The position numbers and the translations under genes were made by a program. Shown piece by piece: positions 5,082 through 61,240 of a stretch of DNA of 64,000 nucleotides (positions are counted from its first letter, which is position 1; each line of letters opens with the position of its first letter). The notes under the pieces were generated by a model. It had not been told where the DNA came from, did not search any database, and was given only the letters and a program-made list of their open reading frames with translations. Source of the stretch: Clostridiales bacterium (GTDB lineage: Bacteria > Bacillota > Clostridia > Christensenellales > CAG-314); the NCBI GenBank assembly GCA_022508375.1, contig JAFLVJ010000002.1:104323-168322 (forward strand). The letters run 5' to 3'.

Positions 5082-5135
5082 TAGCCATCGATTATTAAAG
5101 CCGGCAATCAAACATTTAAATATTATTTAGATATT

Positions 5136-5166
5136 AAATACCCTGCGATAACGCAGGGTATTTTTC
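5136..5166 (+). terminator. Rho-independent terminator after the CvpA-like gene
   Basis: Stem taccctgcg(5139-5147)/cgcagggta(5152-5160), loop ATAA, then TTTTT. Confidence 0.8.
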
Positions 5167-5268
5167 TTGTATATTCCACTGAATAGCATTAAATTACCTC
5201 GTAAATTGTCCCAAAAAGGCATGCACCACACCATTTTTGCTCAAATATTGAACTTTTTACACCCAAAA

Positions 5269-5284
5269 TGTTTCATGTGAAACA
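5269..5284. promoter_or_regulatory. parS: parS site 1 (ParB/Spo0J binding site), one central mismatch
   Basis: TGTTTCATGTGAAACA versus consensus TGTTNCACGTGAAACA (15/16). Confidence 0.7.
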
Positions 5285-5366
5285 ATACTCATTCTTTGTT
5301 TATTGCCATATATACGGTGTAATTTGTTAATACAACTGATATTATTTTGGAATAGTATAAGTTCTT

Positions 5367-5382
5367 TGTTTCACGTGAAACA
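5367..5382. promoter_or_regulatory. parS: parS site 2, perfect 16-bp palindrome
   Basis: TGTTTCACGTGAAACA. Confidence 0.9.
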
Positions 5383-5548
5383 ATATGTCTCGATAACAAT
5401 ACAGTTCAGATAATCAATATTGATGTTAAAAGCAAATATACAGATACTTTTCCATGTTGGTATTAGAAATAGCTCATTTGACAGATTATATCAAAAATGG
5501 CTAGTTAATTAAATACTGCTTTATTGGCAGCGTCAAATATCTATTATT

Positions 5549-5564
5549 TGTTTCACGTGGAACA
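5549..5564. promoter_or_regulatory. parS: parS site 3, exact match to the B. subtilis-type consensus (reverse complement)
   Basis: TGTTTCACGTGGAACA is the reverse complement of TGTTCCACGTGAAACA. Confidence 0.9.
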
Positions 5565-6218
5565 ATTTTTATCAAAATGTGGACTATTTTACTAAATAAT
5601 TAAGTAGCGCATGCGATTTTTGCATAAAAAATAATAATTTAAGGAATAAAAATCAATTAACATACTATAAAAAGACTATTTTGTACTGTATTTAAAGCGG
5701 TATTTCTAAGTAACATAGTTGTGTATCACAATATTTTAACTGTGTATCTAAATAATATACTGCGTATTTTATATCTATATTTAAGTGTTTTTTAGCATCT
5801 TCCAACTAATCCGTACAAAAAAATGTCCGTATAGTGGTCAATCAACCAAAATATTTCCATATTTTATGCCTAAAAGCCACTAAAAACACATTAGTTCGGT
5901 GTGGTTGCCGAGCATCTTATCGAAACAGCCAATCCATTACCCAGTATTCAGTTGTAATTTTTTTTCAATTTCAATTGTTCTTGGAATATATTTTTATATA
6001 ATTGCCTCGATTTTTTTTAAAAAATTGTAGCTTTTTTGTCTTCATTTAAAAATGAACAATTTATGTGAATTTGTTGCCAATAAAGCTCAGAATGGACCTA
6101 AAAAGGGTCGAAAATTTTTGGAAAATAATTAAATTTTTCTGTTAGAATGGCTATTTTAACCAGCTTTTATAACATAATTATTCGCGATTTTGTGTGATTT
6201 TTCAAGCAAAAAAACAAT

Positions 6219-6234
6219 TGTTTCATATGAAACA
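6219..6234. promoter_or_regulatory. parS: parS site 4, palindromic variant with a central TA
   Basis: TGTTTCATATGAAACA (14/16). Both changes fall in the central CG pair and keep the dyad symmetry. Confidence 0.6.
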
Positions 6235-6843
6235 TTGCCATTTGTAACATCAGGTTTTTCACAAAAACATGGTTCGAAATCTAGTTATAGTATCCGAATG
6301 TTTTGTTTACGAAAAAAATTTGAACGTACAAATATATGTAATCGCACACTTTGCACAAATAAATGTGGTACTTTTCCATTTCTTAGCTTTAAATAAGCCA
6401 TGCCATAGCATTTAATTGTGTATAATTGTAAGCTTTTTGAGTATGATTGAGTAAATACCAAGCGTTGCATATCATAAATTAGTATTTAATATCATTTTTA
6501 GATTGAAGTAGTGTACAATTGATGCACGTATGGTACAGAATATAATTATTCATATATAATATATCGTTTCTATTATTCGGCACTGTAAATCTCTTTCTTT
6601 TAGGTTTAGATGTGTTATGATAGTATTTTTTTACAATATCTTGCTATACCCAGATATCGTACAATTTTTGATTAAATCCCCAATCATCTATTCGCACTCA
6701 TATATACATATTTTAACTACAATTCTTTGCGCCGTATATGTAATTTCATTAAAATATTAGCGCTATATTCTAAATATATAATTTAAATGAATGGCGCGAA
6801 GTAAAAATGAACATATATATAATGCATTTCGCTTAAATTAAAT

Positions 6844-6875
6844 GTAAAAAATAAGCTTGCATAACGCAAGCTTGA
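6844..6875 (-). terminator. Rho-independent terminator of the parAB operon
   Basis: Stem aagcttgc(6853-6860)/gcaagctt(6866-6873). On the minus strand it is followed by a T-run (complement of 6845-6852). Confidence 0.75.
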
Positions 6876-6900
6876 TTTAAAAGTATAAATTATTTTTGAC

Positions 6901-8866: not shown

Positions 8867-8895
8867 TTGCGAGTATTTCTCGAATGTGGTAGAAT
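8867..8895 (+). promoter_or_regulatory. Sigma-A type promoter of mnmE; ATG at predicted +1 (leaderless)
   Basis: TTGCGA(8867-8872)-17 bp-TGG TAGAAT(8887-8895). The ATG at 8902 lies 6 nt after the -10, with no SD between them. Confidence 0.55.
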
Positions 8896-8901
8896 ACAGG
8901 T

Positions 8902-10200
8902 ATGAGTAATACGATAGTGGCGTTATCTACCGCCAGGGGACGTGCGGCAATTGCAGTAGTGAGGATGAGCGGTGATGACGCAATAAAAATTGCAAAAAAG
9001 TTTTTTGCTCCATTTCCGAAAAAGCCCAATATGCTAAAAGTCGGAACGCTTAAAACACAGCACTTTGACGAGCATGCAATGTGCGTGTATTTTGCTACGC
9101 CCCACTCCTATACAGGGGAAAACACAGTAGAATTTCATTGTCACGGCGGTACTGCAGTATCTCAAGCCGTTATTGAGCAGTGTATTCATTACGGTGCGGT
9201 AATGGCACAAAACGGAGAATTCAGCAAACGTGCGTTTATCAATGGCAAGCAAAACCTGACAAATGCCGAAGGCATAATCGAAATGATTGACGCGGAAACG
9301 GCTTCTGCTGCCAAAGCGGGCGCAAATCTGTTGGAAAATAAGCTCGGAAAGCGTGTTGTTGAACTGCAAAATGAGCTTTTGGATATCATTTCCGCGTGTG
9401 AAGTGGCGCTTGACTATCCGGAAGAAGATCTTGAGTTGCCCACGGTAGATACGGCAGAACAACAGCTGAAGCACGTTGCAACACAGTTAGACGTGCTTAT
9501 TGCAACATCAACCTTGGGAAAAGTAGCGAAGTACGGTATAGACGTGGCAATAGTTGGCAAGCCCAACGTGGGCAAATCCAGTCTGCTCAACGCTTTGCTG
9601 GGAACGGACCGTGCAATAGTGTCGGACATACAGGGAACCACGCGGGATACACTCACCGAAAGCGTAAACTACAAGGATATAAAGTTTAACTTTGTGGATA
9701 CAGCCGGTCTGCGCGACACCTCGGATACTATCGAACAGGAAGGTGTAAAACGCGCCAAAAAAGCTGCCGATAGCGCCGACGTAGTGCTGCACGTAACTGA
9801 CGACCCAAGTGACCGTTCCGTCTATCCTACCGTACGCCCGCAGGTGCGTATTTACAACAAGTGTGATTTGTTTGAAAACGAACCTTGTTGCGTGGATAGC
9901 CTTGTGGTATCGGCAAAGAGCGGAAACGTGGAAGTTATAAAGGAAACACTTTATGAGATGTTCAGTGCTGGGGATATAGAAAACTCCGACTTGCTCATTA
10001 CAAACGAACGGCATTTATCGTGTTTGAAATTGGCAAAACAACAGGTAAATCAAGCAATGTCCGACTGCAAAGCGACAACTTTGGATATCGTTGCGGGAAG
10101 TATCCGACAAGCATGGGAAACGCTCGGTGAGATTACTGGTACAAGCGCACACGAAGATATTATTAACAGGATTTACAGCAAGTTCTGTTTGGGCAAGTAA
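8902..10200 (+). CDS. mnmE: tRNA modification GTPase MnmE (TrmE)
   Basis: N-terminal 'TIVALSTARGRAAIAVVRMSG', G1 motif 'GKPNVGKSSL', 'DTAG', and the C-terminal 'CLGK' motif. Confidence 0.95.
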   Translation: MSNTIVALSTARGRAAIAVVRMSGDDAIKIAKKFFAPFPKKPNMLKVGTLKTQHFDEHAMCVYFATPHSYTGENTVEFHCHGGTAVSQAVIEQCIHYGAVMAQNGEFSKRAFINGKQNLTNAEGIIEMIDAETASAAKAGANLLENKLGKRVVELQNELLDIISACEVALDYPEEDLELPTVDTAEQQLKHVATQLDVLIATSTLGKVAKYGIDVAIVGKPNVGKSSLLNALLGTDRAIVSDIQGTTRDTLTESVNYKDIKFNFVDTAGLRDTSDTIEQEGVKRAKKAADSADVVLHVTDDPSDRSVYPTVRPQVRIYNKCDLFENEPCCVDSLVVSAKSGNVEVIKETLYEMFSAGDIENSDLLITNERHLSCLKLAKQQVNQAMSDCKATTLDIVAGSIRQAWETLGEITGTSAHEDIINRIYSKFCLGK

Positions 10201-10296
10201 AAATTAAAATATTTACAACGTAAAAAAGTTGCACTTTTAAATGAACGCAAAGTAAAGCTATTAAAACGTACAACTAAACAAGTTAAAGTGTTTATT

Positions 10297-12141
10297 ATGA
10301 AAGAATATGACGTAATTGTAATAGGCGCGGGACATGCGGGATGCGAAGCGGCGTTAGCTTCCGCAAGACTGGGATGCTCCACATTGGTATTGGCTACCAA
10401 CCTTGATACGGTTGGTTTTTTGGCGTGCAATCCCAGTATTGGCGGGACAGCCAAGGGGCAGATTGTAAAGGAAATTGACGCGCTTGGCGGACAAATGGCA
10501 ATAAACGCCGATAGGAGTTTATTGCAAATGCGTATGCTCAACCGCGGCAAAGGTTCTGCCGTTTATTCACCGCGGGCGCAAGTTGACAAAAACGTCTATC
10601 ACGCCCAAATGAAGCGCACGTTGGAAAGTACTGCAAACTTACATTTGCGTCAAGGCGAAGCCGTATCCATTGAGCAAATATCTGACGGTTTTGTTGTGAA
10701 AACAGCCGTGGACTTGGTTTATACGTGTAAAGCTGTAGTGCTGTGTTGCGGAGTATATCTCAATTCCAAGACCTTGGTAGGGCAGTGTATAAGGGAATCC
10801 GGTCCAAACGGATTTGCTAATGCGCGCTATCTAACTCAAAGTCTGATAGATCTTGGATTTACAATCAGTCGTTTTAAGACGGGAACACCTGCAAGAGTTC
10901 GTTTGCAATCGATGGACTTATCCAAAACAGTAGAACAATGCGGTGAGGAGGACGTTCGTCCGTTTTCGTATATTACCGATAGCATTCCCGCAACAAAGCG
11001 TAGCTGTTATCTGACGTACTCCACAGAGGAAACAAAACGTATAATATTGGAAAATAAACACCTTGCACCGATATACAATGGTACAATTAACGGCGTTGGA
11101 CCGCGTTACTGTCCCAGTATAGAGGATAAAGTTGTACGTTTTGCGGACAAAGAGCGCCATCAAATTTTTTTGGAGCCGGAGTCGGAGGACACCTGCGAAT
11201 ATTACGTTCAAGGCGCGTCGTCTTCTATGCCTGCAAGCGTGCAGGAGGAAATTTACCACAGTATCGAAGGGCTGGAAAACGTTGAAATCATGCGAGACGC
11301 TTACGCAATAGAGTACGACTGCATTGACGCAACACAGCTTGACGCAACCCTGATGGCGAAGCATATTCCCGGGATGTTTTTCGCGGGGCAAATCAACGGC
11401 ACAAGCGGTTACGAGGAAGCGGCAGGACAGGGTATTGTTGCCGGAATCAATGCCGAACGGTACGTGCATAACAAGCCCAAGTTTACCTTGCGTCGCGACA
11501 ACAGTTACATTGGCGTATTGATTGACGATATCACCACAAAGGAAAACGTTGAACCTTACCGTATGATGACCAGTCGTGCCGAGCACAGACTTGTTTTGCG
11601 TCAAGATAACGCCGATATGCGCCTTACGGAGCTTGGCAAGGAAATAGGACTGGTAACGGATGAGCGCTATGCAAAGTTTTTGCACAAAAAGGAGCAAATA
11701 GAAAGCGCACAAAAGCAACTTAAAACGGTGGTTTCCCCCAAGGTGTACGGTCCACTGTTTGCTAAAAAAGACGAACCTGTTACGGGCGCGGGATTGACTG
11801 TAGATGAAATGCTTCGCCGAACCAATATCACGACGAAAGACATGCAAGAGTTGGGATTTTTCGCCGATATCGATGAGGACGCATTGTATGAGATTGAAAT
11901 CGAGTGCAAATATCGCGGATATATCGAAAAGGAAAAAGAGGCTATAGCACAAGCCAATAAGCTGGAAAATAAGCCGTTACCCGCCGATATCGATTACCTC
12001 GCTATTGACGGTTTACGGTTGGAGGCAAGGCAGAAACTTGACAAGATCCGTCCTGCAAATCTTGGACAGGCAGGGCGAATACTGGGCGTATCACCTGCGG
12101 ATATTCAAATATTGATAGTGTATCTTGCCACACACCGTTAA
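10297..12141 (+). CDS. mnmG: tRNA uridine 5-carboxymethylaminomethyl modification enzyme MnmG (GidA)
   Basis: FAD motif 'YDVIVIGAGHAGCEAA' and a full-length GidA-like sequence. The start is at ATG 10297; the GTG at 10288 is an alternative. Confidence 0.93.
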   Translation: MKEYDVIVIGAGHAGCEAALASARLGCSTLVLATNLDTVGFLACNPSIGGTAKGQIVKEIDALGGQMAINADRSLLQMRMLNRGKGSAVYSPRAQVDKNVYHAQMKRTLESTANLHLRQGEAVSIEQISDGFVVKTAVDLVYTCKAVVLCCGVYLNSKTLVGQCIRESGPNGFANARYLTQSLIDLGFTISRFKTGTPARVRLQSMDLSKTVEQCGEEDVRPFSYITDSIPATKRSCYLTYSTEETKRIILENKHLAPIYNGTINGVGPRYCPSIEDKVVRFADKERHQIFLEPESEDTCEYYVQGASSSMPASVQEEIYHSIEGLENVEIMRDAYAIEYDCIDATQLDATLMAKHIPGMFFAGQINGTSGYEEAAGQGIVAGINAERYVHNKPKFTLRRDNSYIGVLIDDITTKENVEPYRMMTSRAEHRLVLRQDNADMRLTELGKEIGLVTDERYAKFLHKKEQIESAQKQLKTVVSPKVYGPLFAKKDEPVTGAGLTVDEMLRRTNITTKDMQELGFFADIDEDALYEIEIECKYRGYIEKEKEAIAQANKLENKPLPADIDYLAIDGLRLEARQKLDKIRPANLGQAGRILGVSPADIQILIVYLATHR

Positions 12142-15062: not shown

Positions 15063-15091
15063 TTGCAAACAAACACTCGGTGTGGTATAAT
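15063..15091 (+). promoter_or_regulatory. Sigma-A type promoter of addBA; ATG at predicted +1 (leaderless)
   Basis: TTGCAA(15063-15068)-17 bp-TGG TATAAT(15083-15091). The ATG at 15098 lies 6 nt after the -10. Confidence 0.55.
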
Positions 15092-15097
15092 TTTACT

Positions 15098-18000
15098 ATG
15101 ATTACAATTTACAAGACAAACACTATGGCGGATGCGTCTCAATACGTTATTGACGTTTTAAAAAGGGTAGATAAGAGCAACCTCGACGTCATGCACACGG
15201 TAATTGTGCCCGATCGCGCGTCTCTCGAGGCGGAAAGGGCGTTGCTCAAAGCCTTGGGTGGCAGCTTTAATGCACAAGTAAGGACGTTTAGGCGCTTAGC
15301 TGCGGATATTTTGCCTAAGTACGACTACCTATCTAAGCAAGCAGGCATAATGGCGCTATCCGGTATAATCAAGGATCACAAGGACGAATTGACATGTTAC
15401 GTCAAGGGCATTGACACTGTCGGCTTTGTGGAAAACATGTACGATACCATCAGCATGATGAAGTACTGCAAGATATCGCCCAAACAACTGTTAACGGATC
15501 TTCCCAAGAGCGTAAAGGGCAAGGCGCAGGATATAGCTTTGCTGTATCAGGCGTATCTTGATTATACTTCCGACCGATTTATCGACTCGGCAGACAAGCT
15601 GGATTTGCTTAGCGAAAGCATTGCGCAATCGGATATTGCTGCAAACGGTTACTTTTATTTGTACGACTTCGACAACTTTTCCACGCAGGAACTGGCAATT
15701 GTTGAGCAACTTATGCTCAAAAGTCGCGGTGTTACGGTGGCATGTTGCGTGGGTGACGGCTACCGTGACAGGCATCTGTATCTGGACGATATTTATAGCG
15801 GTGTTGTTGAGCTGTGCAAGCGAAACGACATCCAACCGCAAATAATTCAAGGCAAAAACTTCGTTAACCGTTACGCTGAGCAAATAGGCACACATCTATT
15901 TCGTTACGACAGCTGCACTCCCATGGAGGCGACAAACTATGCGAGTATATACGAAGGAACGACTCGCGTCAACGAAGTGTATGCCTTGGCGTGCGAAGTG
16001 CAAAAGTACGTGCGCAACGGAGGCCGTTTTAGGGATATATACGTTGTAACAAGCGATATTGCCAAGTATTCCAACGCTATTTCCACGATTTTCGATCAAT
16101 TTGAAATACCGTATTTTTGTGACAGACAGTTTGTTTTGTCCGATCACCCGTACGCGCGTTTCGTTATAGACTACCTTACGCTGCACAAAAACAACGGAAA
16201 GCTTAGCAGCGTGCTTCCTTTTGTCAAAAATTATCTGTTTTGTGGCGATTTCGACGGTAATCTGAGCCAAAACGACGACGTATTTCTATTTGAAAACTAT
16301 TGCCTGAAGTACAACGTTTCCTATCGGTACGACAGCTTTTCGTTAGGACGCGAGGAAGAGTATTTTGCGCAAGCGGATAACTTCCGTGACAAGTTTAACA
16401 AGCTTTACAGTGAGATAAAGGTCCCTGAAAGCGCGCAGGTATCAACGTACGTTGCTATTATTCGCAAACTTATCGAAGTATCCAACCTTGTTGAGCGCAA
16501 CAGCCGCTTTGCCGAACAACAGCAAGGCGAAGGGCTGTCATTTGAGGCAAAGGTCACCAAGCAAGCGCAGGAAAAGTTCGAAACTGTATTGATGCAAGCG
16601 GAGCAAGTGCTAGGCGAACGGTACGTCAAACTGGACGAATTTATCAAGACCTTGTCGGCAGGCGTTGCTTCGGTAAAAATATCCGTTATTCCCGTTTACA
16701 ACGATTGCGTCATATTTGCCAACATGGCAAAGGCGCGCAAGCACGATATCAAGTTTTTGGCTTTGCTTGGCGCAAACTACGGTGCGATGCCCATTGTCAA
16801 GAGTGACAGCAAGCTGTTATCGGACAGAAATATCGTGGATTTGGTAAATGCGGGCGTAAACGTTGAACCTCAGATATTTACCGAAAACAGGCGTGAGCGT
16901 TTCAGTCTGTTTCAGTTGCTGATGGAACCTACTAATAAACTGTACGTATCCTACACGTTGACGGACGGCGCGGATAGTCTTATTCCGTCGCCATTTGTAA
17001 ACGAGCTTGGACTGTTGTTTACGGCAGGCGGTCAAGCGTTGGCTCCAACACACCTTGTGGACGAGGATATATATACCGAAGGTCAGGCGATTGCCAAGGT
17101 TGTACTAAACAACAGACGTCTAAAAGACTGTCAAATAGTGCAAGTGCCGTCATTTAACGCGCTTAGTGTGCTGTTCGCAGACAGGATTGCGCACTACGAA
17201 TTTACTAAAGACGGTAGGTCTGTCACGGTAGATAGGGGCGGAGAGCTTTACCTCAAAAACTCCGCTACAAGCGTAAGCCAATTGACGGATTTTTTCAAGT
17301 GTCCGTTCCGTTTTTATATAGAGTACGGTCTGAACGTTAAGCCACGTTCCGTAGCCGAGTTGGATTCGGCGGAACTGGGTAACGTACTGCACGCCGTACT
17401 GGAGGAGTACGTCAGGAATATGGACTTGACGGAAAGTGACGAAATTACGCGGGAAAAAGCGCAAAAGTGGTTCGATTACGCCATGCGCGACGACTTTTAC
17501 AAGGGAATGAGGAATGATCCCAAGATGGTGGGAGTTCTTGAGCAACTCAAATCGGAAAGTTGCCGTATGTGTAGGGTAGTCAAGTCACAGTTGTGCAACT
17601 CCAATTTTACCAATCTTGCAACGGAGCTTGCGTTTGGAGGAAGTAGCGAGTTACCTCCCGTTGTGGTGGAGTTTTCGGGCGGTAAGTTCTCCCTCGTGGG
17701 AAAAATCGACCGAGTTGACGTAAAAGACGGACGTTTTATCGTCATCGATTACAAAAGCGGTTCGGCTGCGGCGTCTTATCACGAGAAGGACTTATATATA
17801 GGACACAAGATGCAACTGCCCGTGTACGTCAGGGCGGTAGAGCAAATTTACGGTATGCGTCCTGCGGGATTTTACTACTTCAACATGCACGATAACTTTA
17901 CCGACCTCAACTCCGAAAAGGTTTATACCTACAACGGCAGGACGTTGGACGACGTACAAGTTGCAAAGGACATTGATACAAAGCTTGACGCGGGCAAGAG

Positions 18001-18292
18001 CGAAAAATTGGGTCTTAAACTGAAATCGGACGGAACTCTAAGTCGCGTTGGCAGCAAATTGCTTAGCGACGAACAATTCGACAATCAAACGGAGTACGCT
18101 TTTCGTCTTATCAAGAGGGCCGGTGAACTTATGAAACAGGGCTACGCTGCAGTCAATCCCTACGTGGGCGCATGTGACTACTGCGATTACATAGATATTT
18201 GCGACTTCAACGACGTGTATTCGCACAACGCGCGCGAAGTGAAGGACAAAATATCCATAGATACTATTGATAAAGTAATACGGAGGTCATAG
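15098..18292 (+). CDS. addB: Helicase-nuclease complex AddAB, subunit B (AddB/RexB)
   Basis: The C-terminal RecB-type nuclease carries Fe-S cysteines ('FFKCPFRFY' ... 'GACDYCDYIDIC') and 'IDRVD...VIDYKSG'. It pairs with addA downstream. The start is set at ATG 15098 because the upstream part of the long ORF (14951-15097) overlaps the promoter and looks non-coding. Confidence 0.9.
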   Translation: MITIYKTNTMADASQYVIDVLKRVDKSNLDVMHTVIVPDRASLEAERALLKALGGSFNAQVRTFRRLAADILPKYDYLSKQAGIMALSGIIKDHKDELTCYVKGIDTVGFVENMYDTISMMKYCKISPKQLLTDLPKSVKGKAQDIALLYQAYLDYTSDRFIDSADKLDLLSESIAQSDIAANGYFYLYDFDNFSTQELAIVEQLMLKSRGVTVACCVGDGYRDRHLYLDDIYSGVVELCKRNDIQPQIIQGKNFVNRYAEQIGTHLFRYDSCTPMEATNYASIYEGTTRVNEVYALACEVQKYVRNGGRFRDIYVVTSDIAKYSNAISTIFDQFEIPYFCDRQFVLSDHPYARFVIDYLTLHKNNGKLSSVLPFVKNYLFCGDFDGNLSQNDDVFLFENYCLKYNVSYRYDSFSLGREEEYFAQADNFRDKFNKLYSEIKVPESAQVSTYVAIIRKLIEVSNLVERNSRFAEQQQGEGLSFEAKVTKQAQEKFETVLMQAEQVLGERYVKLDEFIKTLSAGVASVKISVIPVYNDCVIFANMAKARKHDIKFLALLGANYGAMPIVKSDSKLLSDRNIVDLVNAGVNVEPQIFTENRRERFSLFQLLMEPTNKLYVSYTLTDGADSLIPSPFVNELGLLFTAGGQALAPTHLVDEDIYTEGQAIAKVVLNNRRLKDCQIVQVPSFNALSVLFADRIAHYEFTKDGRSVTVDRGGELYLKNSATSVSQLTDFFKCPFRFYIEYGLNVKPRSVAELDSAELGNVLHAVLEEYVRNMDLTESDEITREKAQKWFDYAMRDDFYKGMRNDPKMVGVLEQLKSESCRMCRVVKSQLCNSNFTNLATELAFGGSSELPPVVVEFSGGKFSLVGKIDRVDVKDGRFIVIDYKSGSAAASYHEKDLYIGHKMQLPVYVRAVEQIYGMRPAGFYYFNMHDNFTDLNSEKVYTYNGRTLDDVQVAKDIDTKLDAGKSEKLGLKLKSDGTLSRVGSKLLSDEQFDNQTEYAFRLIKRAGELMKQGYAAVNPYVGACDYCDYIDICDFNDVYSHNAREVKDKISIDTIDKVIRRS

Positions 18293-18300
18293 CCATATAA

Positions 18301-21300
18301 ATGAGCAGTAAACAAGTATTTACTTCATCACAGCAAAACGTAATAGATTTTCGCGGGAAAAACATGTTGGTATCGGCGTCGGCAGGCACCGGTAAAACGA
18401 CCGTAATGATAGAGCGAATCGTGTCCTTGATTGAGCAAGGCGCAGACGTATCGCAAATTGTGGTGGTAACCTTCACCAACCTTGCCGCATCGGAAATGAA
18501 GGCAAGGCTTGCCGCAAAACTGTCGGAAAAGCGTAACAATCCGCGTATTCTCGAGCAGATAGAAAAGCTTGACAGCGCAAGCATTTGCACGTTGCACTCG
18601 TTTTGCAGCGAACTTCTCAAAAACTATTTCTACGTTGTGGATATCGATCCCGCATTTACGATATTGGATAGCGTAACGGTTGCAACCTTGCGCAAAAACA
18701 CGCTTGACGACGTATTTGCCGAGTATTTTTCCGATAAAGACGACATTTTTCGGCGTGTTTACAAAATTTTCGCCACGCACAGGCGGGAGGAAAATTTCAA
18801 AAACACGCTGTTAACGCTGTATGACTTTTCTCGTTGTTTGGAGGATTTTTCCGCTTGGTACGAGCAAAAACGCAACAATTTCTTGCAATACAGCGACGAC
18901 AACCCAATTGTCAAGACTCTATTGAGTGATGTTGTGCAATCGGTACAGTACTACAAGCGCAATATGCATAATATTGTCGAGCGTAGTAGGGAAATGGATT
19001 TGACCTATACCGACCTGTTTGAGTACAACCTTGAGCTTTTGCATGGAATAAGGTTGGACACGTTGGAGCACGCGCTATTTGATTTGTCGAAGGTCTCACT
19101 GCAATCACTGCCGCGAAAGGCGAAAAATGTTGTTTTCGATGACATAGAGGAAAATATCCGTCAGAACTTCAAGGATTTGAAGGGTGATTTCGAAAAGTTT
19201 GCCGGTAAGTACGCTACGTTATGCCGTGGCGAAAATATGCAGACGTTGTGGGAAGAAACAAAGCAATCTACCGTCTATACCGACAAACTGGTGGAAATTG
19301 TCGAAAAATTTGACCAAATGTTTTTCCAAGCGAAAAAACAGCGTGGAGGTGTAGATTTCAACGACTTGGAGCATCTCACCCTGCAACTGTTGAACGACGA
19401 CGAAACGCTTGCGGAAATTCGCAGCCGATACAAGTTGGTATTTGTGGACGAATATCAGGACACAAACCCCGTGCAGGAGGCTATCATATCGCGACTTGCC
19501 TCACCTGACAATCTGTTTATGGTTGGCGACGTTAAACAGTCGATTTACGGCTTCCGCGGTTGCGAACCGTCAATATTCGTAGATAAATACACGCGGTATT
19601 TGCAAACGAGCGAAGGGCGCGTTGAGGAGCTCAACGACAACTTCCGCAGTAACAGTGATATTTTGGAATTCGTCAACGTTTTATTTGACGAAATAATGAC
19701 AATGAGCTTCGGTAAGGTGGATTACAGCAATACCGCGCAACTTCAAGGTGCAACATCGCCTACGTTGCAAACGCCCTCCACCCGCGTTGACCTCATACTT
19801 AAAGAGGAACGCGAAAGCGTAGAAATAGACAGTCTGTACGATATTACTGCGGATGCCGAAAACTACGACGGGGTCAAGCAGGGCGAACACATAGCCAAGC
19901 GCATTAAGGAGTACGTCGGTATGGCGTACCGTGACAAGGATGGAAATGCGCGCCGCATCAACTACGGTGATATCGTGATTCTCATGCGCGGATTGACGGG
20001 CAAAGCGATAGATATATACAACACGCTTGTTGCTCACAATATACCCGTATCGGCAGCCTTCAAGGTGGACGGTTTTTCCGGTAAAGAAGTACGTGACCTT
20101 GTAACACTGTTCCGTGTTATCGACAATCCGTACAACGATGTGTACCTGATCGGTGCATGTCTTAGTTCTTTCGGCGGCTTTACCGAGCGTGAACTTGGCT
20201 ATATCCGCTTGGATACAGAGGGGCGGATACCCTTTTACGAAAGATTGCAAAGTTACACAGTAAGCGGGTTAAACGCCGAAATCGTGACAAAAATAAAGGC
20301 TTTCTTGGAGTTTTTGCGTAAGCTTCGTTTTTACTCACGTAGCGCCAAGGTGGACGAGCTGGCACTGTATGTTATGAACGAGACCAACTATCACCTGTAC
20401 GTGCAAAGTTTGCCCAACGGTGGAATGCGCCTCAATAAGCTTTACGCCTTTATCGATAGCGTCAAGGACGCGTCGTATGCGCAAACGGTAGATAAGTTCC
20501 TGTCATTTGTAGATGAAACGGATGACAAACGCGCCGAAAGCGGACTTTTCGGCGGTAACACCGTACGTTTGATGACTATGCACGCCAGTAAGGGATTGGA
20601 GTTTCCAGTGGTAATACTTGCCGGCGTGGAGTCGCAGTTCAATTTCGACAACAATACCGTGGAGACTAACACCGACTTGGGATTAGCGGTACGCTATTAC
20701 AACTTCCAAAATATGCGCGTTGCCGATACTTTGGGCGCCACGGCATGCGGATTGTTCAATAAGATAAAACAGCGCGAAGAGGAAATGCGTCTTTTGTACG
20801 TGGCAATGACACGCGCCAAGTTTGCCTTGGACATGGTGGGAACAATCAGTGACAAGCAACTTAAGGCGTTGCCTAAGCTTCCCACGCGTGCAATGAGCCA
20901 CCTCGATTGGTTGATGATAGTCGTTCAACAACAAATGAAACAGTCTAAGTTGGCAAACGGTTTGGAAATAAACGTCATAGATAGCTTGCCGAACAATGAA
21001 GATGAAGCGGATAATGCAGGGTATCTGTGCGAACAGACGGTAAGTATCGAAGATGTTGAACGTAAGCTCAGTTACAGGTATCAATATGCCGATCAGACGC
21101 TTATGCCATCCAAGGTGGTGAGTTCGGCGCTGGATAAGGAATATCTGGATTTAACCGACGAACCGCAAGCGGAGCATACGTTAAACGTTAATAACGAGCG
21201 CAACTTTATCGGTACGGCGTATCACAAGGTATATCAGTATGTTGACTATAATGCGGACGAAAGTGAAATTCGCGCTCTCATTGACAGCCTTGTGCGGGAC

Positions 21301-21698: not shown

Positions 21699-22676
21699 AT
21701 GACGAAAGAAAAAATTCTGTGGTTAAGTTGCGGCTCATCGGTAGGAGCAATAGCACTGTTTATCATCATACTGACTATCATATCGCGTAAGGTTTACCAC
21801 CGTTCCTTAATGGCAACCTTTATCGTGCTGTTTTTTCGGTTGACCGTTCACCACAAAAGTGACAGCGAGGTTATTGCAGACGCCAATTATTTACCGCTCA
21901 AAAACGACTGCCCATATGTTATTCCCCGATCTGTCCGTACGCGTAAGCAACAAAAATATGTTTTCGAAGGTATGACGGTATTTGGCGTAAACATGAATAA
22001 CAATACCGACCGAGTTGTGGTGTATCTGCACGGCGGTGGATACGTTCGTCAACCGCGATTGTATCACTGGAAGTATATCAACAAGCTTGCGGCAAAGGTG
22101 GGTAACGTCGTTGTGCCCATCTATCCCAAGGCGCCACGTCACCATCCCAAGGAAGTTGTGGATATATTGACCAAAATGTACATTGAACTGTGTAAAATGT
22201 TTGACAAAGTCGTTCTAATGGGCGATTCGTCAGGTGGCGGATTGGCACTGGCACTGTGTCAGCATTGGGATAAATTGGGATTTCAACAACCGCGCAAGAC
22301 GATATTGTTTTCCCCTTGGACAGATTTGACGTTGAGCAATCCCGAAATTGACAGATATCAAAAGCTCGACCCTCTCATTTGCGCGTCATCCGAGCGTATC
22401 TGGGCAAAGCTTTGGGCGGGGGATATAGACTTGCGTAACGCTCTTATCAGTCCGATGTTCGGCGATATGAGTAAACTGGGCAAAATCTTGCTGTTTACGG
22501 GTGATAGAGAAATATTGTATCCCGATTTGGTAAAGTTAAACGACATAATGATAGAACAGGGCGCCGACGTCCGTTTTACCGTAGGACACGGAATGAATCA
22601 CGTTTATCAAGTTTATCCAATACCCGAAGCACGCAAGGCGCTAAATGAAATCGTTGAAGAAATAAAGCAGGTATAA
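21699..22676 (+). CDS. Alpha/beta hydrolase, hormone-sensitive-lipase-like esterase with an N-terminal TM anchor
   Basis: Oxyanion 'HGGGY' and nucleophile elbow 'GDSSGG' motifs, with a C-terminal catalytic His region. Confidence 0.85.
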   Translation: MTKEKILWLSCGSSVGAIALFIIILTIISRKVYHRSLMATFIVLFFRLTVHHKSDSEVIADANYLPLKNDCPYVIPRSVRTRKQQKYVFEGMTVFGVNMNNNTDRVVVYLHGGGYVRQPRLYHWKYINKLAAKVGNVVVPIYPKAPRHHPKEVVDILTKMYIELCKMFDKVVLMGDSSGGGLALALCQHWDKLGFQQPRKTILFSPWTDLTLSNPEIDRYQKLDPLICASSERIWAKLWAGDIDLRNALISPMFGDMSKLGKILLFTGDREILYPDLVKLNDIMIEQGADVRFTVGHGMNHVYQVYPIPEARKALNEIVEEIKQV

Positions 22677-23488: not shown

Positions 23489-23493
23489 TAAAT

Positions 23494-23521
23494 AAAAGCC
23501 GACTTGCCGTCGGCTTTTATT
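23494..23521 (+). terminator. Rho-independent terminator
   Basis: Stem agccgac(23497-23503)/gtcggct(23509-23515) followed by TTTT. Confidence 0.75.
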
Positions 23522-23532
23522 TGTGTTAAAAT
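23504..23532 (+). promoter_or_regulatory. Sigma-A type promoter of uvrC; ATG at predicted +1 (leaderless)
   Basis: TTGCCG(23504-23509)-17 bp-TGT TAAAAT(23524-23532). The ATG at 23539 lies 6 nt after the -10. Confidence 0.5.
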
Positions 23533-23538
23533 ATTAGC

Positions 23539-25362
23539 ATGATAACTAACGTCGATATACAAACAAAACTTAAAAATTTACCCGATGAGCCGGGCGTCTA
23601 TATCATGTACGACGCCGACGGCAATATTTTGTATGTCGGCAAGGCTAAAGTACTGAAAAATCGCGTTCGGCAGTACTTTCACGCATCCACCAACAAGACG
23701 GAAAAAGTATTGGCAATGCTCAGTCACGTTGCCGATTTCCGCTACATCATCACCGCAAGCGAAACGGACGCGCTTAGCCTCGAAAATACGCTGATAAAAA
23801 AACACACTCCTCCTTACAATATTTTGCTTAAAGATGATAAGCAATATCCTTACATCAAGGTGGATTTGTCGGCGGATTTTCCTAAGTTCGTGTCAACTCG
23901 CAAGCTTCAAAAGGACAAATACAAGTATTTCGGTCCCATTACTCAAGGCGGAGCCAAGTCATTCCTTGAAATTCTCGGTAGTGTTTTTCCCACCGTTCAG
24001 TGCAACAACAACTTTGCTAAACTTCCCAAAAACTTCCGTCCTTGCCTCAATTACCACATTGGCAAGTGTCCGGCGCCCTGTATCGGTAAGATATCGAAAG
24101 AGGACTATCGCAAGATCGTCAACCGCGCGGTTGCCTTTTTGTCGGGTGATGACAGTGAAGTGCGCGAAGTATTGCAAGCCAAGATGATGCAGTCATCGGA
24201 AAAAATGCAGTACGAGCAAGCGCTGACTTACAAGCGATATTTGCAACTAATTGACAAAATTTCGCAACAACGCATCGTCGTACTCAACAAATTTGTCGAT
24301 TACGATATGTTTGCAGTTGCAAGTAACGGCAAAAACTGCGTTGTAAACCACACAATGATACGCGGTGGTAAGGTTATATTTTCCGACAATAACGCTGTAT
24401 CCGACGCGGGATTGGATGAAGCGCAAACGCTATCCAGTTTCCTTGCAGAGTACTGCGAAATGGTCAAGCTGTGCGGTGAAATCTACGTCAACGTCGAACT
24501 GCAGGACAGTGACGAGTTGTCGCAACTTATCAAGGATAAGACTGGCGTAAAAACACAGATTTACTGTCCTAAACTTCAAGATAAAAAGCGCTTGGTGGAT
24601 ATGTCCTACCGCAACGCAGTGGAATATCTTACCAAGAGTCAAACTGACATTGACAAAAAATACAACACTACGCACGGCGCCGTATTGCAACTTAAAGAGT
24701 TGTTGCACTTAAAGAAATTACCCACGCGAGTGGAGTGTTACGATATAAGTAACGTTCAGGGAGTGGATAAGGTTGCCAGTATGGTAGTATTTACCAACGG
24801 ACAAAAGGACGCGTCGCAATACCGTCGGTTCCGCATCAAGACGGTCGAGGGTGCCAACGACTTTGCAAGCATGAAGGAAGTGTTGACAAGGCGATTCGAA
24901 CGAATGAAGGAGGACGACGGCGTATTTGGCAAGACTCCCGACCTTATTGTTGTAGATGGAGGCTTGGGACAACTGGACTACGCTAAGCAGGCAATGGAGG
25001 AAAGCGGTGTTGAAGTTCAGCTCGTTTCCCTTGCCAAGCGGGAGGAACTGGTATATACGCTCGGCACAAACGAACCGACGTTTTTACCGCGCAACAGCTA
25101 CGCGTTAAATTTGCTTATCAACATTCGTGACGAAAGTCACCGCTTTGCAATAACCTACTTCCGCAAGCTACACAATCGCAACAGCATCAAGTCGGTATTG
25201 CAGGACGTCGAAGGCATAGGCGAAAAACGGCGAATCGAACTTCACCGCAAATACAAGTCCATGGACGCGTTGCGCGAGGCGTCTATTGAGGATATAGCGG
25301 AAACCAAGGGCATGACCCGACCGATAGCTGAGAAGCTGTACAAGTTTTTACATCAAGATTGA
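23539..25362 (+). CDS. uvrC: Excinuclease ABC subunit C
   Basis: GIY-YIG N-terminus 'PGVYIMYDADGNILYVGKA', a UVR domain, an RNase H-like endonuclease domain and a C-terminal (HhH)2. Confidence 0.95.
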   Translation: MITNVDIQTKLKNLPDEPGVYIMYDADGNILYVGKAKVLKNRVRQYFHASTNKTEKVLAMLSHVADFRYIITASETDALSLENTLIKKHTPPYNILLKDDKQYPYIKVDLSADFPKFVSTRKLQKDKYKYFGPITQGGAKSFLEILGSVFPTVQCNNNFAKLPKNFRPCLNYHIGKCPAPCIGKISKEDYRKIVNRAVAFLSGDDSEVREVLQAKMMQSSEKMQYEQALTYKRYLQLIDKISQQRIVVLNKFVDYDMFAVASNGKNCVVNHTMIRGGKVIFSDNNAVSDAGLDEAQTLSSFLAEYCEMVKLCGEIYVNVELQDSDELSQLIKDKTGVKTQIYCPKLQDKKRLVDMSYRNAVEYLTKSQTDIDKKYNTTHGAVLQLKELLHLKKLPTRVECYDISNVQGVDKVASMVVFTNGQKDASQYRRFRIKTVEGANDFASMKEVLTRRFERMKEDDGVFGKTPDLIVVDGGLGQLDYAKQAMEESGVEVQLVSLAKREELVYTLGTNEPTFLPRNSYALNLLINIRDESHRFAITYFRKLHNRNSIKSVLQDVEGIGEKRRIELHRKYKSMDALREASIEDIAETKGMTRPIAEKLYKFLHQD

Positions 25363-29661: not shown

Positions 29662-29737
29662 CTGGGTGTAGCGCAGTTGGTAGCGCACAAGACTGGGGGT
29701 CTTGGGGTCGCTGGTTCAAGTCCAGTCACTCAGACCA
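29662..29737 (+). tRNA. tRNA-Pro (anticodon GGG), CCA encoded
   Basis: Manual cloverleaf: acceptor CTGGGTG/CACTCAG (C1-G72 and A73 as expected for bacterial tRNA-Pro); D arm GCGC-AGTTGGTA-GCGC; anticodon arm CAAGA-CTGGGGG-TCTTG; T arm GCTGG-TTCAAGT-CCAGT; 76 nt. Confidence 0.9.
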
Positions 29738-29746
29738 AATAAATAA

Positions 29747-29774
29747 AGAGGATACAGTCGTGTCCTCTTTTTTT
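29747..29774 (+). terminator. Rho-independent terminator after tRNA-Pro
   Basis: Stem gaggata/tgtcctc (29748-29767) followed by TTTTTTT. Confidence 0.75.
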
Positions 29775-29831: not shown

Positions 29832-29860
29832 TTGCAATAATGTGTAAATTGTAGTACAAT
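29832..29860 (+). promoter_or_regulatory. Sigma-A type promoter of the 5'-nucleotidase gene; ATG at predicted +1 (leaderless)
   Basis: TTGCAA(29832-29837)-17 bp-TACAAT(29855-29860). The ATG at 29867 lies 6 nt after the -10. Confidence 0.5.
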
Positions 29861-29866
29861 TACCGT

Positions 29867-31516
29867 ATGAAAAAGAGATATTTTGTTTTAACGTTAATTA
29901 TTGTAGCTATTTTTGCATTGTCGGCATTTGGTTTTGTCGGAATGTACACAGGTGACATGGCGTACGCTGAGTCGCAGACCGTGGATATTTACGCAATCAA
30001 CGACTTCCACGGTGCGGTGGACAAGATGCCGCAAATTGCCGGATATTTGGCTGCACGCAAAAGCGAAGGTGCGGTTATCGTCAACGCGGGGGATATGTTC
30101 CAAGGTTCGATGGAGTCTAACTCTAACTACGGCAGGTTGCTTTCGGAGTGTATGGATATTGCGGGATTCGACTCCTTTACCTACGGCAATCACGAGTTCG
30201 ACTGGGGATTGGACAACTTGCGAACGCTTGCGCAAAACAGTACAACGCCTTTCCTCGGTGCCAACATATACAACTGGAACGCTAACACACGCGAGTGGGG
30301 CGAATTTGCAAGCGATCTTGCCGAACCATATACTATTGTAGATAGTAACGGTATCAAGGTGGGTATCATCGGCATAATCGGCAAGGATCAAATTACGTCC
30401 ATTTCGTCACAGTTGGTGCAAACTATCGGCTTTAAAGACCCGAGCGAAGTGGTGCCGAGCTTATCCGATAAGCTGCGCAACGAAGAAAACTGCGATATAG
30501 TTATCGTCAGCGCTCACACAGGGCAGGACACATTTTTGGAAGATAGAAGCTGGGATATATCTCAATACGCCAATGCAGTACTTTGCGCCCACACCCACCA
30601 AAGGGAAATGGAATACAGAGGCGAAGTTCCCTTTATTCAGGCGGGATCGTACGGCAATTACATTTCGCACATACAGCTGTACATCAACATCAACAACGAG
30701 GTCAAGTGCGGATATCGCGAATATATTACCTACAACAGTATCGGCGATAACGAAATTGACCGCGACGTTTACAACACCGTAAAGACCAAGATTGACAACT
30801 CCAACGCCGGTATTGCCGACGAGGCAAATCAAGTGTTGGCAACGCTCTCGGGCGGATTGGAAAGTAAGCACGCAGTTCCCCGTTTGGTGTGTCACGCAAT
30901 AGCCGAATACGCCGAAAAGCAAGGACATCACATTGACCTTGTAATGGTGAACAACGCGCGTAACTCGCTATCCAAGGGTGAAGTTACCTACACTGAGCTG
31001 TACGAAGCAATACCGTTTGACAACGTCGTTTACGTGGCAAAGGTATCCGGTAAGGACATTATCAACGAGGCAAGATACGACAGCAACAGTATTTGGCGCG
31101 TAAGCGGTAACGCAATTGTAAACAATAGCGCCCAGTATTACACAATTGCGGTAATTGACTACCTGTTGTATCATCAAAACTCCAACCGCATTTACAACTA
31201 CTTCCCGTCGGCATTCAAGAGTGGATTTACTCCCGTTGCTCTTACCAAACAGGGTGTAGAAATGTACAATTACCGTCATATTACCAGAGATTTCCTATTG
31301 AGTAATCCCACTATCGATTCGTCGGTATATACCTCGGACAACATTCACACGGACGCAAGCAAGCTGCAAAGTAGCGTAGATTTGCCAATTTACGTCGAGC
31401 CCGTCTTGCCCGACTACGCAATTGCGTTGATAGTTGTCGGCGGTGTGATTGTGGTGGCGGTTGTTGTCGCGATAGTGATTATATTGCTTCGCAAACGCGC
31501 GAAAGCCAACAATTAA
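29867..31516 (+). CDS. Secreted 5'-nucleotidase / calcineurin-like metallophosphoesterase with a C-terminal TM anchor
   Basis: Signal/TM N-terminus. Metallophosphatase motifs 'INDFHG', 'NAGDMFQGS', 'GNHEFDWG', 'SAHTG' and 'CAHTHQ'. A 5'-nucleotidase C-terminal domain, then a hydrophobic tail 'ALIVVGGVIVVAVVVAIVIILL' followed by 'RKRAK'. Confidence 0.85.
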   Translation: MKKRYFVLTLIIVAIFALSAFGFVGMYTGDMAYAESQTVDIYAINDFHGAVDKMPQIAGYLAARKSEGAVIVNAGDMFQGSMESNSNYGRLLSECMDIAGFDSFTYGNHEFDWGLDNLRTLAQNSTTPFLGANIYNWNANTREWGEFASDLAEPYTIVDSNGIKVGIIGIIGKDQITSISSQLVQTIGFKDPSEVVPSLSDKLRNEENCDIVIVSAHTGQDTFLEDRSWDISQYANAVLCAHTHQREMEYRGEVPFIQAGSYGNYISHIQLYININNEVKCGYREYITYNSIGDNEIDRDVYNTVKTKIDNSNAGIADEANQVLATLSGGLESKHAVPRLVCHAIAEYAEKQGHHIDLVMVNNARNSLSKGEVTYTELYEAIPFDNVVYVAKVSGKDIINEARYDSNSIWRVSGNAIVNNSAQYYTIAVIDYLLYHQNSNRIYNYFPSAFKSGFTPVALTKQGVEMYNYRHITRDFLLSNPTIDSSVYTSDNIHTDASKLQSSVDLPIYVEPVLPDYAIALIVVGGVIVVAVVVAIVIILLRKRAKANN

Positions 31517-42232: not shown

Positions 42233-42265
42233 TGTATGGTTATGGAACAAATGGAAAATTTCGCT

Positions 42266-59970: not shown

Positions 59971-60093
59971 ATGCTTAGATATGATTACGATTACGAAAGA
60001 GAACACCGAGACCCGTGTGATGTTTTTGAGGAACAGCGCGCATATGTTATTGCATTGGGGCTTACAAATGCTTTTATGCAACTTGGTAAATAG
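59971..60093 (+). CDS. Small hypothetical protein (40 aa)
   Basis: Strong RBS AAGGAGG (59956-59962) 8 nt before ATG 59971. Sequence 'MLRYDYDYEREHRDPCDVFEEQRAYVIALGLTNAFMQLGK'. A weak hairpin plus T-run follows (60108-60155). Divergent from the AraC gene. Confidence 0.5.
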   Translation: MLRYDYDYEREHRDPCDVFEEQRAYVIALGLTNAFMQLGK

Positions 60094-60175
60094 ATATCCT
60101 TTTATGTAAAAATACTCCGCAAGTCTTGTTTGACTAGTGGGGTATTTTTATTTTATATATAAACTTTAGATAGTA

Positions 60176-60204
60176 TTGAAACTTTATTTTCGGTGTGGTA
60201 AAAT
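60176..60204 (+). promoter_or_regulatory. Sigma-A type promoter of the sbcD-like operon; ATG at or near predicted +1 (leaderless)
   Basis: TTGAAA(60176-60181)-17 bp-TGG TAAAAT(60196-60204). The ATG at 60212 lies 7 nt after the -10. Confidence 0.5.
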
Positions 60205-60211
60205 ATAACCT

Positions 60212-61240
60212 ATGAAGATAATTCATTGCGCAGATATACATTTAGATTCGCCGCTAATTGGCGTAAAAGACTCGGGCGCGCGTCGCCACGAGTTACTTGT
60301 TGCGCTAATGAACATGTCCGAATATGCCAATAATAACGGCGTTTCGGCAATTATTGTTGCGGGCGATTTGTTTGACGATAGGTTCGCTACATCCTCTACT
60401 GTGGAAAGCGTAGCGGAAATTGTTCGTGCAAGCAAGGCGGCTTGGTTTGTGTTGCGTGGCAATCATGGCGGACGTGATCCTTACGTCAAGCTACACGAAC
60501 TTTGTTCGCAAATCAACTTCTTTGAGGATTCCTGGACATCGTACAACCTCGGCAACGTTACAATTTGCGGACGCGAACTGGGACATAACGACGTTGAACA
60601 GTGGGGCAGACTCTCTTTGGATGCGTCCCGTTACAACATTGTGGTTTTGCACGGCGATATTGACGACGACAGCTACGGCTTGATAGACAAGCGCGCATTG
60701 GCAAACAGTGGTGCCCGATACGTTGCATTGGGACACAGGCACACCTTCGCGGAGCACAAGCTTGGGGTTGTTCGTGCATGTTACAGTGGCGTATTGGAGT
60801 CGCGCGGATTTGACGAACCGACGTCCGGCTTTGTCGAAATAGATACCGATACGGATAAGATTTGCTTTATCAAGCAGCCCATTCGCTCGGTTGTTACCAC
60901 GCTGATTGACGTAACGGATATCACAAGTGATATTGCATTGCAACGCCTTGTGTCCGATACGGTAGCAGACGTGTCTCCACGCAATTATCTAAACGTCGTA
61001 TTATGCGGAAGCGTCACTGCCGATTTGCACACGTCAGTGGTTAAGCAGCTACTTCAAGATAGGTTTTTCGCGTTGCGGATAAAGGACGAAACGACAACTA
61101 AGATTGACGTTTCCTCTCTGTTAAACGAAGTGTCGTTGCGCGGCGAGTTCGTAAAGCTTGCAATGAACGAAAAAGACGAAAAACTTCGTGACGAAATTAT
61201 AAAGCTTGGATTGTTAGCGCTAAACGGAGGGAACTTATGA
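60212..61240 (+). CDS. Mre11/SbcD-type metallophosphoesterase (YhaO-like DNA repair exonuclease)
   Basis: 'MKIIHCADIHLDS', 'VAGDLFD', 'GNHG', 'VLHGD' and 'LGHRH' phosphoesterase motifs. Confidence 0.88.
   Translation: MKIIHCADIHLDSPLIGVKDSGARRHELLVALMNMSEYANNNGVSAIIVAGDLFDDRFATSSTVESVAEIVRASKAAWFVLRGNHGGRDPYVKLHELCSQINFFEDSWTSYNLGNVTICGRELGHNDVEQWGRLSLDASRYNIVVLHGDIDDDSYGLIDKRALANSGARYVALGHRHTFAEHKLGVVRACYSGVLESRGFDEPTSGFVEIDTDTDKICFIKQPIRSVVTTLIDVTDITSDIALQRLVSDTVADVSPRNYLNVVLCGSVTADLHTSVVKQLLQDRFFALRIKDETTTKIDVSSLLNEVSLRGEFVKLAMNEKDEKLRDEIIKLGLLALNGGNL

Follow-up and report, generated by a model that had tools for sequence, protein, structure and literature searches.

In the classical leaderless mRNAs of Escherichia coli and phage (lambda cI, Tn1721 tetR), the ribosome and the initiator tRNA recognise a 5'-terminal AUG directly, and AUG is required. 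These classical cases are isolated regulatory genes, whereas the genes considered here are chromosomal housekeeping genes: mnmE, addB, uvrC, a gene for a secreted 5'-nucleotidase and an sbcD-like gene. They lie in a 64-kb stretch of contig JAFLVJ010000002.1 (the whole stretch is called the window below) from an uncultured, Christensenellales-like member of the Clostridia, and each has a promoter that ends directly before its ATG and lacks a Shine-Dalgarno (SD) sequence. Among streptococci, in S. pyogenes as well as in S. agalactiae and S. pneumoniae, differential RNA sequencing (dRNA-seq) has found 8.6-9% of mRNAs to be leaderless, with strong conservation between species (PMC6431027). The dRNA-seq data of S. 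pyogenes class the mnmE transcript as primary and leaderless, its untranslated region being 0 nt long, and at promoters of the TGnTAnAAT type they place the modal transcription start site (TSS) 12-13 nt away when counted from the hexamer's first base. This distance equals the N6-N7 spacing at the five genes of the window and thus provides an experimental calibration from another Firmicute. The streptococci and the source organism of the window are alike in being Firmicutes with SD-dominant translation and extended -10 promoters, in a TSS (mapped there, predicted here) 6-7 nt past the hexamer, and in a leaderless-type mnmE. On the other hand, the streptococci are experimentally mapped Bacilli, whereas the five genes are predictions from an uncultured member of the Clostridia; moreover, dnaA and the 5'-nucleotidase gene have leaders of 27 nt and 32 nt in S. 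pyogenes and are of the leaderless type in the source genome.

Beyond the streptococci, a survey of 209 Firmicute genomes predicted leaderless genes in 56 of them, mainly of Lactobacillales and Mycoplasma, with a mean of 4.2% and a maximum of 16.6% of genes (PMC3160421), and the TAnAAT box accompanied by a TG extension and a -35 element was described for low-GC Firmicutes by Zheng et al. 2011 (PMC3160421). The leaderless group C of the gene finder GeneMarkS-2 includes 36 of 1064 Firmicutes (PMC6028130). Actinobacteria and Deinococcus-Thermus, with 20-60% leaderless genes, have a high G+C content and a degenerate TANNNT box (PMC6028130, PMC3160421); in contrast, the full TAnAAT hexamer of the source genome is joined by a TG extension and a -35 element, and the share of such genes is about 13% of the open reading frames (ORFs) in 64 kb. 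Less than 1% of enterococcal mRNAs are leaderless. In C. difficile, 6 leaderless transcripts were reported among 1646 TSSs (bioRxiv 2020.08.10.244764), and the potentially leaderless genes of C. phytofermentans mostly retain a ribosome-binding site and a second TSS (PMC5171806). These cultured Clostridia belong to the same class as the source organism and likewise have a GGAGG-type SD on most genes, but leaderless genes are very rare in them, whereas the five genes of the source genome have neither an SD nor a second promoter. An earlier note on this DNA had regarded leaderless transcripts as rare in Firmicutes, a statement which is outdated in view of the streptococci (about 9%) and of the 36 Firmicutes in group C; the share in cultured Clostridia is below 1%.

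The layout that the earlier note had described at the five genes, TTGnnn-17-(TGn)TAnAAT-N6/7-ATG, is present letter for letter at all five sites (Table 1). The TGn extension occurs in four of the modules, being absent from that of the 5'-nucleotidase gene, and the distance between the hexamer and the ATG is 6 nt in four modules and 7 nt only in the sbcD-like one. All five start codons are ATG, as is that of dnaA (discussed below), and in all five the spacing falls within the 5-8 nt between a -10 element (TANNNT) and the start codon that mark a bacterial leaderless gene. When both strands of the window were scanned with a regular expression, these five were the only full-consensus cases at the starts of long ORFs. 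Compared with dinucleotide shuffles of the window, the pattern TTG-N20-TANAAT-N6-ATG was observed 4 times against 0.10 expected, and 0 of 100 shuffles attained 4; its N7 form was observed once against 0.06 expected. Taken together, the N6 and N7 forms amount to 5 observed against about 0.16 expected, and in every match the ATG opens a long ORF.

Table 1. Promoter-start modules, coding sequences and neighbouring features; positions refer to the window.
Feature	Position	Strand	Layout or remark
mnmE module	8867-8904	+	TTGCGA (8867-8872)-17-TGG TAGAAT (8890-8895; with TGG 8887-8895)-acaggt-ATG 8902
mnmE coding sequence	8902-10200	+	
mnmG, weak candidate	10261-10299	+	TTAAAA-17-TAAAGT-N7-ATG 10297; no SD (-0.5 kcal/mol); outside the five
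addB module	15063-15100	+	TTGCAA-17-TGG TATAAT-tttact-ATG 15098
addB coding sequence	15098-18292	+	addA comes next, at 18301 (SD of its own)
Hairpin of 14 bp with T-run	23490-23522	+	terminator of the preceding gene (ends 23488); 3' arm and loop hold the uvrC -35
uvrC module	23504-23541	+	TTGCCG-17-TGT TAAAAT-attagc-ATG 23539
uvrC coding sequence	23539-25362	+	
tRNA gene	29662-29734	+	precedes the terminator hairpin of the next row
Terminator hairpin	29745-29770	+	upstream of the 5'-nucleotidase promoter
5'-nucleotidase module	29832-29869	+	TTGCAA-17-TACAAT-taccgt-ATG 29867; without TG extension
5'-nucleotidase coding sequence	29867-31516	+	N-terminal signal peptide
Conserved 40-aa ORF	59971-60093	+	AGGAGGT SD; then hairpin and T-run at about 60112-60150
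sbcD-like module	60176-60214	+	TTGAAA-17-TGG TAAAAT-ataacct-ATG 60212
sbcD-like coding sequence	60212-61240	+	an sbcC-like gene comes next, at 61237 (SD of its own)

The association of the motif with gene starts extends to related genomes. It precedes 5 of the 38 ORF starts in the window (13%), 17 of 563 in the loci of close relatives and 6 of 448 in those of distant relatives, and the corresponding numbers for internal ATGs are 0 of 291, 5 of 3077 and 3 of 2697, so that 0.1-0.2% of internal ATGs carry it versus 1.3-13% of ORF starts. In a sample of 1.83 Mb, made up of the window and the fetched loci of relatives, counts which contain orthologous repeats and therefore gauge conservation as much as independent recurrence place the ATGs of ORFs of at least 100 aa in a cluster 6 and 7 nt after TGnTAnA[AC]T (16 and 20 cases, versus 1-5 at adjacent distances). 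No similar peak at 6 and 7 nt is seen in this sample for GTG (3, 1), TTG (1, 6) or CTG (0, 3). Among the unit-first genes of the window, about 5 of roughly 29 carry the module, and dnaA in the adjoining 10 kb is added to these; the counts for the source genome cover 74 kb (the 64-kb window and 10 kb upstream of it) of a genome of more than 1 Mb.

The strength of the SD was scored as the energy of the duplex that the anti-SD ACCUCCUUU forms with the 22 nt before the start codon. The best duplexes of the five genes lie between -4.0 and +0.9 kcal/mol, and those of 27 other genes in the window are at or below -5.6 kcal/mol; these energies agree with the earlier note both in that none of the five has an SD and in that more than 15 other genes have one of the GGAG type. 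The SD-led genes of the window have promoters of this same TGnTAnAAT type, followed by leaders of about 15-70 nt. An SD is also lacking at rsmG (12169), a GDSL-lipase-like lipoprotein gene (56611) and an AraC-like regulator gene (59722, - strand), with -1.5, -2.3 and +0.9 kcal/mol, respectively. No acceptable -10 element was found 5-8 nt before the start codons of these three genes, and a GCAAAT 6-7 nt before the ATG is common to two of them. Two coupled genes, at 21699 and at 55435, likewise lack both an SD and the leaderless geometry.

Judged from the positions of Pfam domains and from the N-termini of orthologues, the ATGs that abut the promoters are the real starts of the five genes. The Pfam domains of the five products open at residues 1-19. 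In the mnmE product (TrmE_N and MnmE_helical), position 1 of the TrmE_N profile aligns at residue 4, and the ATG is taken as the true start because, in many orthologues, the aligned codon is preceded at the right spacing by a canonical GGAGG. The uvrC product contains a GIY-YIG domain (from residue 18) and the UvrC RNase H domain; a start at the next in-frame Met, residue 23, would truncate GIY-YIG. In the sbcD-like product, position 1 of the Metallophos profile falls on residue 1, and a later start would cost metallophosphatase motif I; in the secreted 5'-nucleotidase, whose Metallophos and 5_nucleotid_C domains follow the signal peptide, it would cost that signal peptide. In four of the five genes, no other start codon lies between the preceding in-frame stop and the ATG. 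The exception is addB (ADDB_N and PD-(D/E)XK domains), in which an in-frame TTG lies upstream of ATG 15098, yet all orthologues begin with MITIYK. The NCBI PGAP annotation of the same metagenome-assembled genome (MAG) starts at the promoter-abutting ATGs, with products of 432 aa (MnmE), 1064 aa (AddB) and 607 aa.

Each of the five genes heads its transcription unit. The mnmE and addB genes face divergent genes, and a terminator lies directly upstream of the promoters of uvrC, the 5'-nucleotidase gene and the sbcD-like gene. A promoter scan of the five intergenic regions found no other same-strand consensus promoter, and an Rfam search of the window found no leader or riboswitch elements, two tRNAs being the only matches. 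The conserved 40-aa ORF and the hairpin behind it set the sbcD-like promoter apart from upstream transcription. This ORF (MLRYDYDYEREHRDPCDVFEEQRAYVIALGLTNAFMQLGK), whose SD is a strong one, lies between the AraC-like gene and the sbcD-like gene; it is of equal length in three relatives (L099, L100, L101), and no Pfam match is on record for it.

A sixth case is dnaA, about 9 kb upstream of the window (L098 1420-1465, - strand), with the layout TTGATT-17-TGGTACAAT-N6-ATG. Translation from this ATG gives the N-terminus MLKINQIWNNILLEAEAK, which closely matches that of a relative's DnaA (MLKIDQIWKNILLEAEAK, L015); the deposited gene call (ENA) starts dnaA at a TTG 11 codons downstream of the promoter-abutting ATG. 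The mnmG gene is a weaker candidate: its promoter matches poorly, and most of its orthologues have an SD and begin with TTG or GTG. Among the mnmG orthologues (L001-L080), those that are SD-led use TTG or GTG in 22 of 27 and those without an SD offer ATG in 34 of 39, a contrast that is suggestive only, because the selection rule favoured ATG. Another candidate, at 42236/42242 (TTGACT-18-TATAAT-N3/N9-ATG), was rejected. Its L103 orthologue starts at the downstream Met of MKKSGF... and has a leader, so the gene in the window most likely begins at 42266.

The comparison set consisted of 80 mnmE-centred genome loci, 16 uvrC-centred metagenome loci and contigs with sbcD and 5'-nucleotidase homologues; the nearest genomes are MAGs of uncultured Clostridia labelled Clostridiales, Christensenellaceae, Oscillospiraceae or Candidatus Fimimonas. 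For addB, the geometry TTGnnn-17/18-TGnTAnA[AC]T-N6/7-ATG is kept in 7 of 8 species although the spacer sequences differ, and the exception (L084-88) has a -10 element plus a 16-nt AAGGTG leader. The sbcD genes show the geometry in 4 of 5 species (including L100, L101 and L102); in the fifth, L099, the same promoter is followed by a 49-nt leader with GGAGG. For the 5'-nucleotidase gene the geometry is found in 3 of 4 species, being kept in L103 and L104, while L105 is SD-led. In uvrC, the -10-N6/7-ATG arrangement occurs in the window, L084-88, L089, L091 and L096 (at least 4 species), and L015 is SD-led. The mnmE gene is of the leaderless type in the window, in its closest relative L001, and in L037 and L071, and nearly so in L008. 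In the mnmE alignment (A1), the -35 TTG, TG-TA-AAT and ATG columns are invariant around an indel that bears the SD, which indicates that promoter and ATG stay in place while the SD leader between them comes and goes. The geometry is also present in the recF, addA, dnaA and rsmG genes and a Mini-III-like RNase gene of relatives.

Several side observations concern these orthologues. In L081 (5922) and L082 (5960), addA has its own leaderless-type module, TTGAAA-17-TGATATAAT-N6-ATG, and recF has one in three distant relatives (L054, L056, L067). At two loci (L034 1494, L059 7242) ATG-AGG-TAT-TCT-ATG comes after the mnmE promoter; its first ATG lies at N6 from the -10 element and overlaps GAGGT, a potential SD for the second ATG; these mnmE starts may be dual-mode or intermediate forms. 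In L081-L083, the region before the uvrC ATG (about 9930-10000) holds a C-run and a long A-run (ccccccccaaaaaaaaaataaaa) with a terminator upstream, and neither an SD nor a -10 element was found at this uvrC start. In L002-L017, the conserved sequence 'aaaatatccacaa', which resembles a DnaA box, lies with repeated 'gtgtacaa' elements between mnmG and rsmG, an arrangement seen in many relatives. Three loci (L018, L029, L041) are titled 'Corallococcus sp.', and the NCBI taxonomy puts Candidatus Fimimonas (L034, L036, L074) under Myxococcaceae; given the 61-78% MnmE identity to Clostridia-labelled MAGs, the Corallococcus and Myxococcaceae labels are probably a naming artefact.

The five genes are most likely transcribed and translated as leaderless mRNAs. 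The housekeeping (sigma-A) holoenzyme would read each gene from its extended -10 promoter, TTGnnn-17-TGnTAnAAT. Since the -10 hexamer ends 6 nt (7 nt in sbcD) before the ATG, transcription is predicted to start on the A of the ATG, or 1-2 nt off at most, and a start at this position would yield an mRNA without a 5' untranslated region and hence without an SD site. The 5'-terminal AUG would then be recognised directly by a ribosome carrying fMet-tRNA, while the downstream cistrons addA and sbcC would use ordinary SD-dependent initiation. In the course of evolution, small indels in the stretch that separates a constant promoter from a constant ATG convert the leaderless-type arrangement and the short-leader SD form into each other. 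The core of the leaderless reading proposed in the earlier note rests on the promoter geometry, the absence of an SD, the first place in the unit, the identity of the start codons, the conservation across species and the ATG-specific peak; the exact 5' ends and the leaderless recruitment of ribosomes are what we infer from these features. A set of low-abundance housekeeping functions (replication and repair, tRNA modification, one secreted nucleotidase) fits weak constitutive initiation.

Some results weigh against this interpretation. Compared with the 27 SD-led genes, the first 36 nt of the five predicted mRNAs are neither less structured (Mann-Whitney p=0.15) nor richer in A (Mann-Whitney p=0.77), although such traits would be expected of leaderless mRNAs. 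Leaderless mnmE is limited to a few species, and most relatives have the aaagTGGTACAAT promoter followed by a 12-20-nt GAGGT leader. One gene caller chose an in-frame GTG at mnmE codon 6. In addition, the motif is found in 1-3% of ORFs in the sampled loci of relatives, which are mnmE- and uvrC-centred, versus 13% in the window. The earlier suggestion that the lineage uses leaderless initiation for a sizeable subset of its genes is supported for the 74 kb covered of the source genome (5 of 38 ORFs and dnaA); in the sampled loci of relatives the share of ORFs is about 1-3%, and single orthologues are often SD-led.

Three other explanations have to be weighed against leaderless expression. The five genes might be transcribed chiefly from promoters farther upstream or by read-through, with SD-less initiation at an internal AUG, such as one in an unstructured A/U-rich region, while the abutting promoters would be secondary or silent. 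Initiation that needs no SD does take place in this genome in some form, as neither an SD nor the leaderless geometry is present at rsmG, at the genes at 56611 and 59722 (the latter AraC-like) and at two coupled genes (21699, 55435). However, the five intergenic regions offer no other same-strand consensus promoter, and three of the promoters stand directly behind terminators. Nor does transcription from farther upstream predict a 6- or 7-nt spacing that is kept across species whose spacers have diverged, and it leaves the ATG-specific peak at this distance unexplained; we consider it unlikely. Chance, by which AT-rich intergenic DNA would mimic promoters beside start codons, is scarcely credible. 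Although consensus promoters as such were found 41 times against 29 expected in 17.8 kb, the full pattern including the ATG is found 5 times against about 0.16 expected, each match falls on a true gene start, the arrangement is conserved in orthologues, and internal ATGs carry the motif about 10- to 100-fold less often.

The promoters could also be real and the start codons mis-assigned, so that translation from a downstream codon, such as the GTG at mnmE codon 6, would leave a short leader. This is plausible for mnmE only. The ENA gene calls for the source contig (ERZ27293309 k141_447414, 206 kb) give an MnmE of 427 aa that begins at this GTG, 5 codons late, and take the downstream TTG for dnaA (their AddB, of 1111 aa, begins 47 codons early), and an AGGT is located 15 nt upstream of the GTG. 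A spacing of 15 nt between an SD and a start codon is too long for SD use, however, and the orthologues speak against the GTG: those with a canonical SD start at the aligned ATG. In the product of the window gene, moreover, TrmE_N begins at residue 4. In uvrC, the sbcD-like gene and the 5'-nucleotidase gene, the next start would remove part of GIY-YIG, metallophosphatase motif I and the signal peptide, respectively, and the NCBI annotation takes the promoter-abutting ATGs. Mis-assignment as a general explanation is thus very improbable, and leaderless expression from the abutting promoters is preferred.

Another finding is an apparent bias towards replication and repair genes in the 74 kb: 4 of 6 are of the leaderless type, versus 2 of 24 other unit-first genes (Fisher p=0.007, in a post hoc comparison of a small sample). 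The cases concerned are dnaA, addB/addA, uvrC and sbcDC in the source genome, and recF, addA and dnaA in relatives. No LexA (Cheo) boxes were found near the promoters of the repair genes, and the number of such boxes in the window is at chance level. It is conceivable, although rather doubtful, that leaderless initiation is preferentially tied to DNA replication and repair operons as an SD-independent class, which would track the state of the ribosome and initiation factors instead of SD strength, with individual species tuning expression through indels of 10-50-nt SD leaders.

Apart from these genes, the window contains a 1.8-kb AT-rich stretch adjoining parB (5082-6900; GC about 0.35) without an ORF of at least 70 aa. 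The palindrome TGTTTCAcGTGAAACA occurs in it four times, at 5269, 5367, 5549 and 6219, and agrees with the parS consensus. The GC skew changes sign near this stretch, and no cluster of DnaA boxes was found within it.

Leaderless initiation as a mechanism is already known from the streptococci and from gene-finder models, and the view of it is unchanged by the present results; the advance is a modest one and concerns the uncultured Christensenellales-like Clostridia. We found no paper connecting leaderless mRNAs with Christensenellales-like bacteria, and as the mechanism is established elsewhere, this is a new lineage for a known mechanism. A branch of the Clostridia would thereby join the Mollicutes and, among the Bacilli, the streptococci and lactococci as a group with appreciable leaderless usage. 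Because automatic callers misplace the starts of mnmE, dnaA and addB, a leaderless-aware model would aid the annotation of MAGs from this abundant gut lineage. Finally, the series of orthologues across species, in which promoter and ATG are shared and an SD leader is present or absent between them, would provide natural matched pairs for the interconversion of leaderless and SD-led genes.

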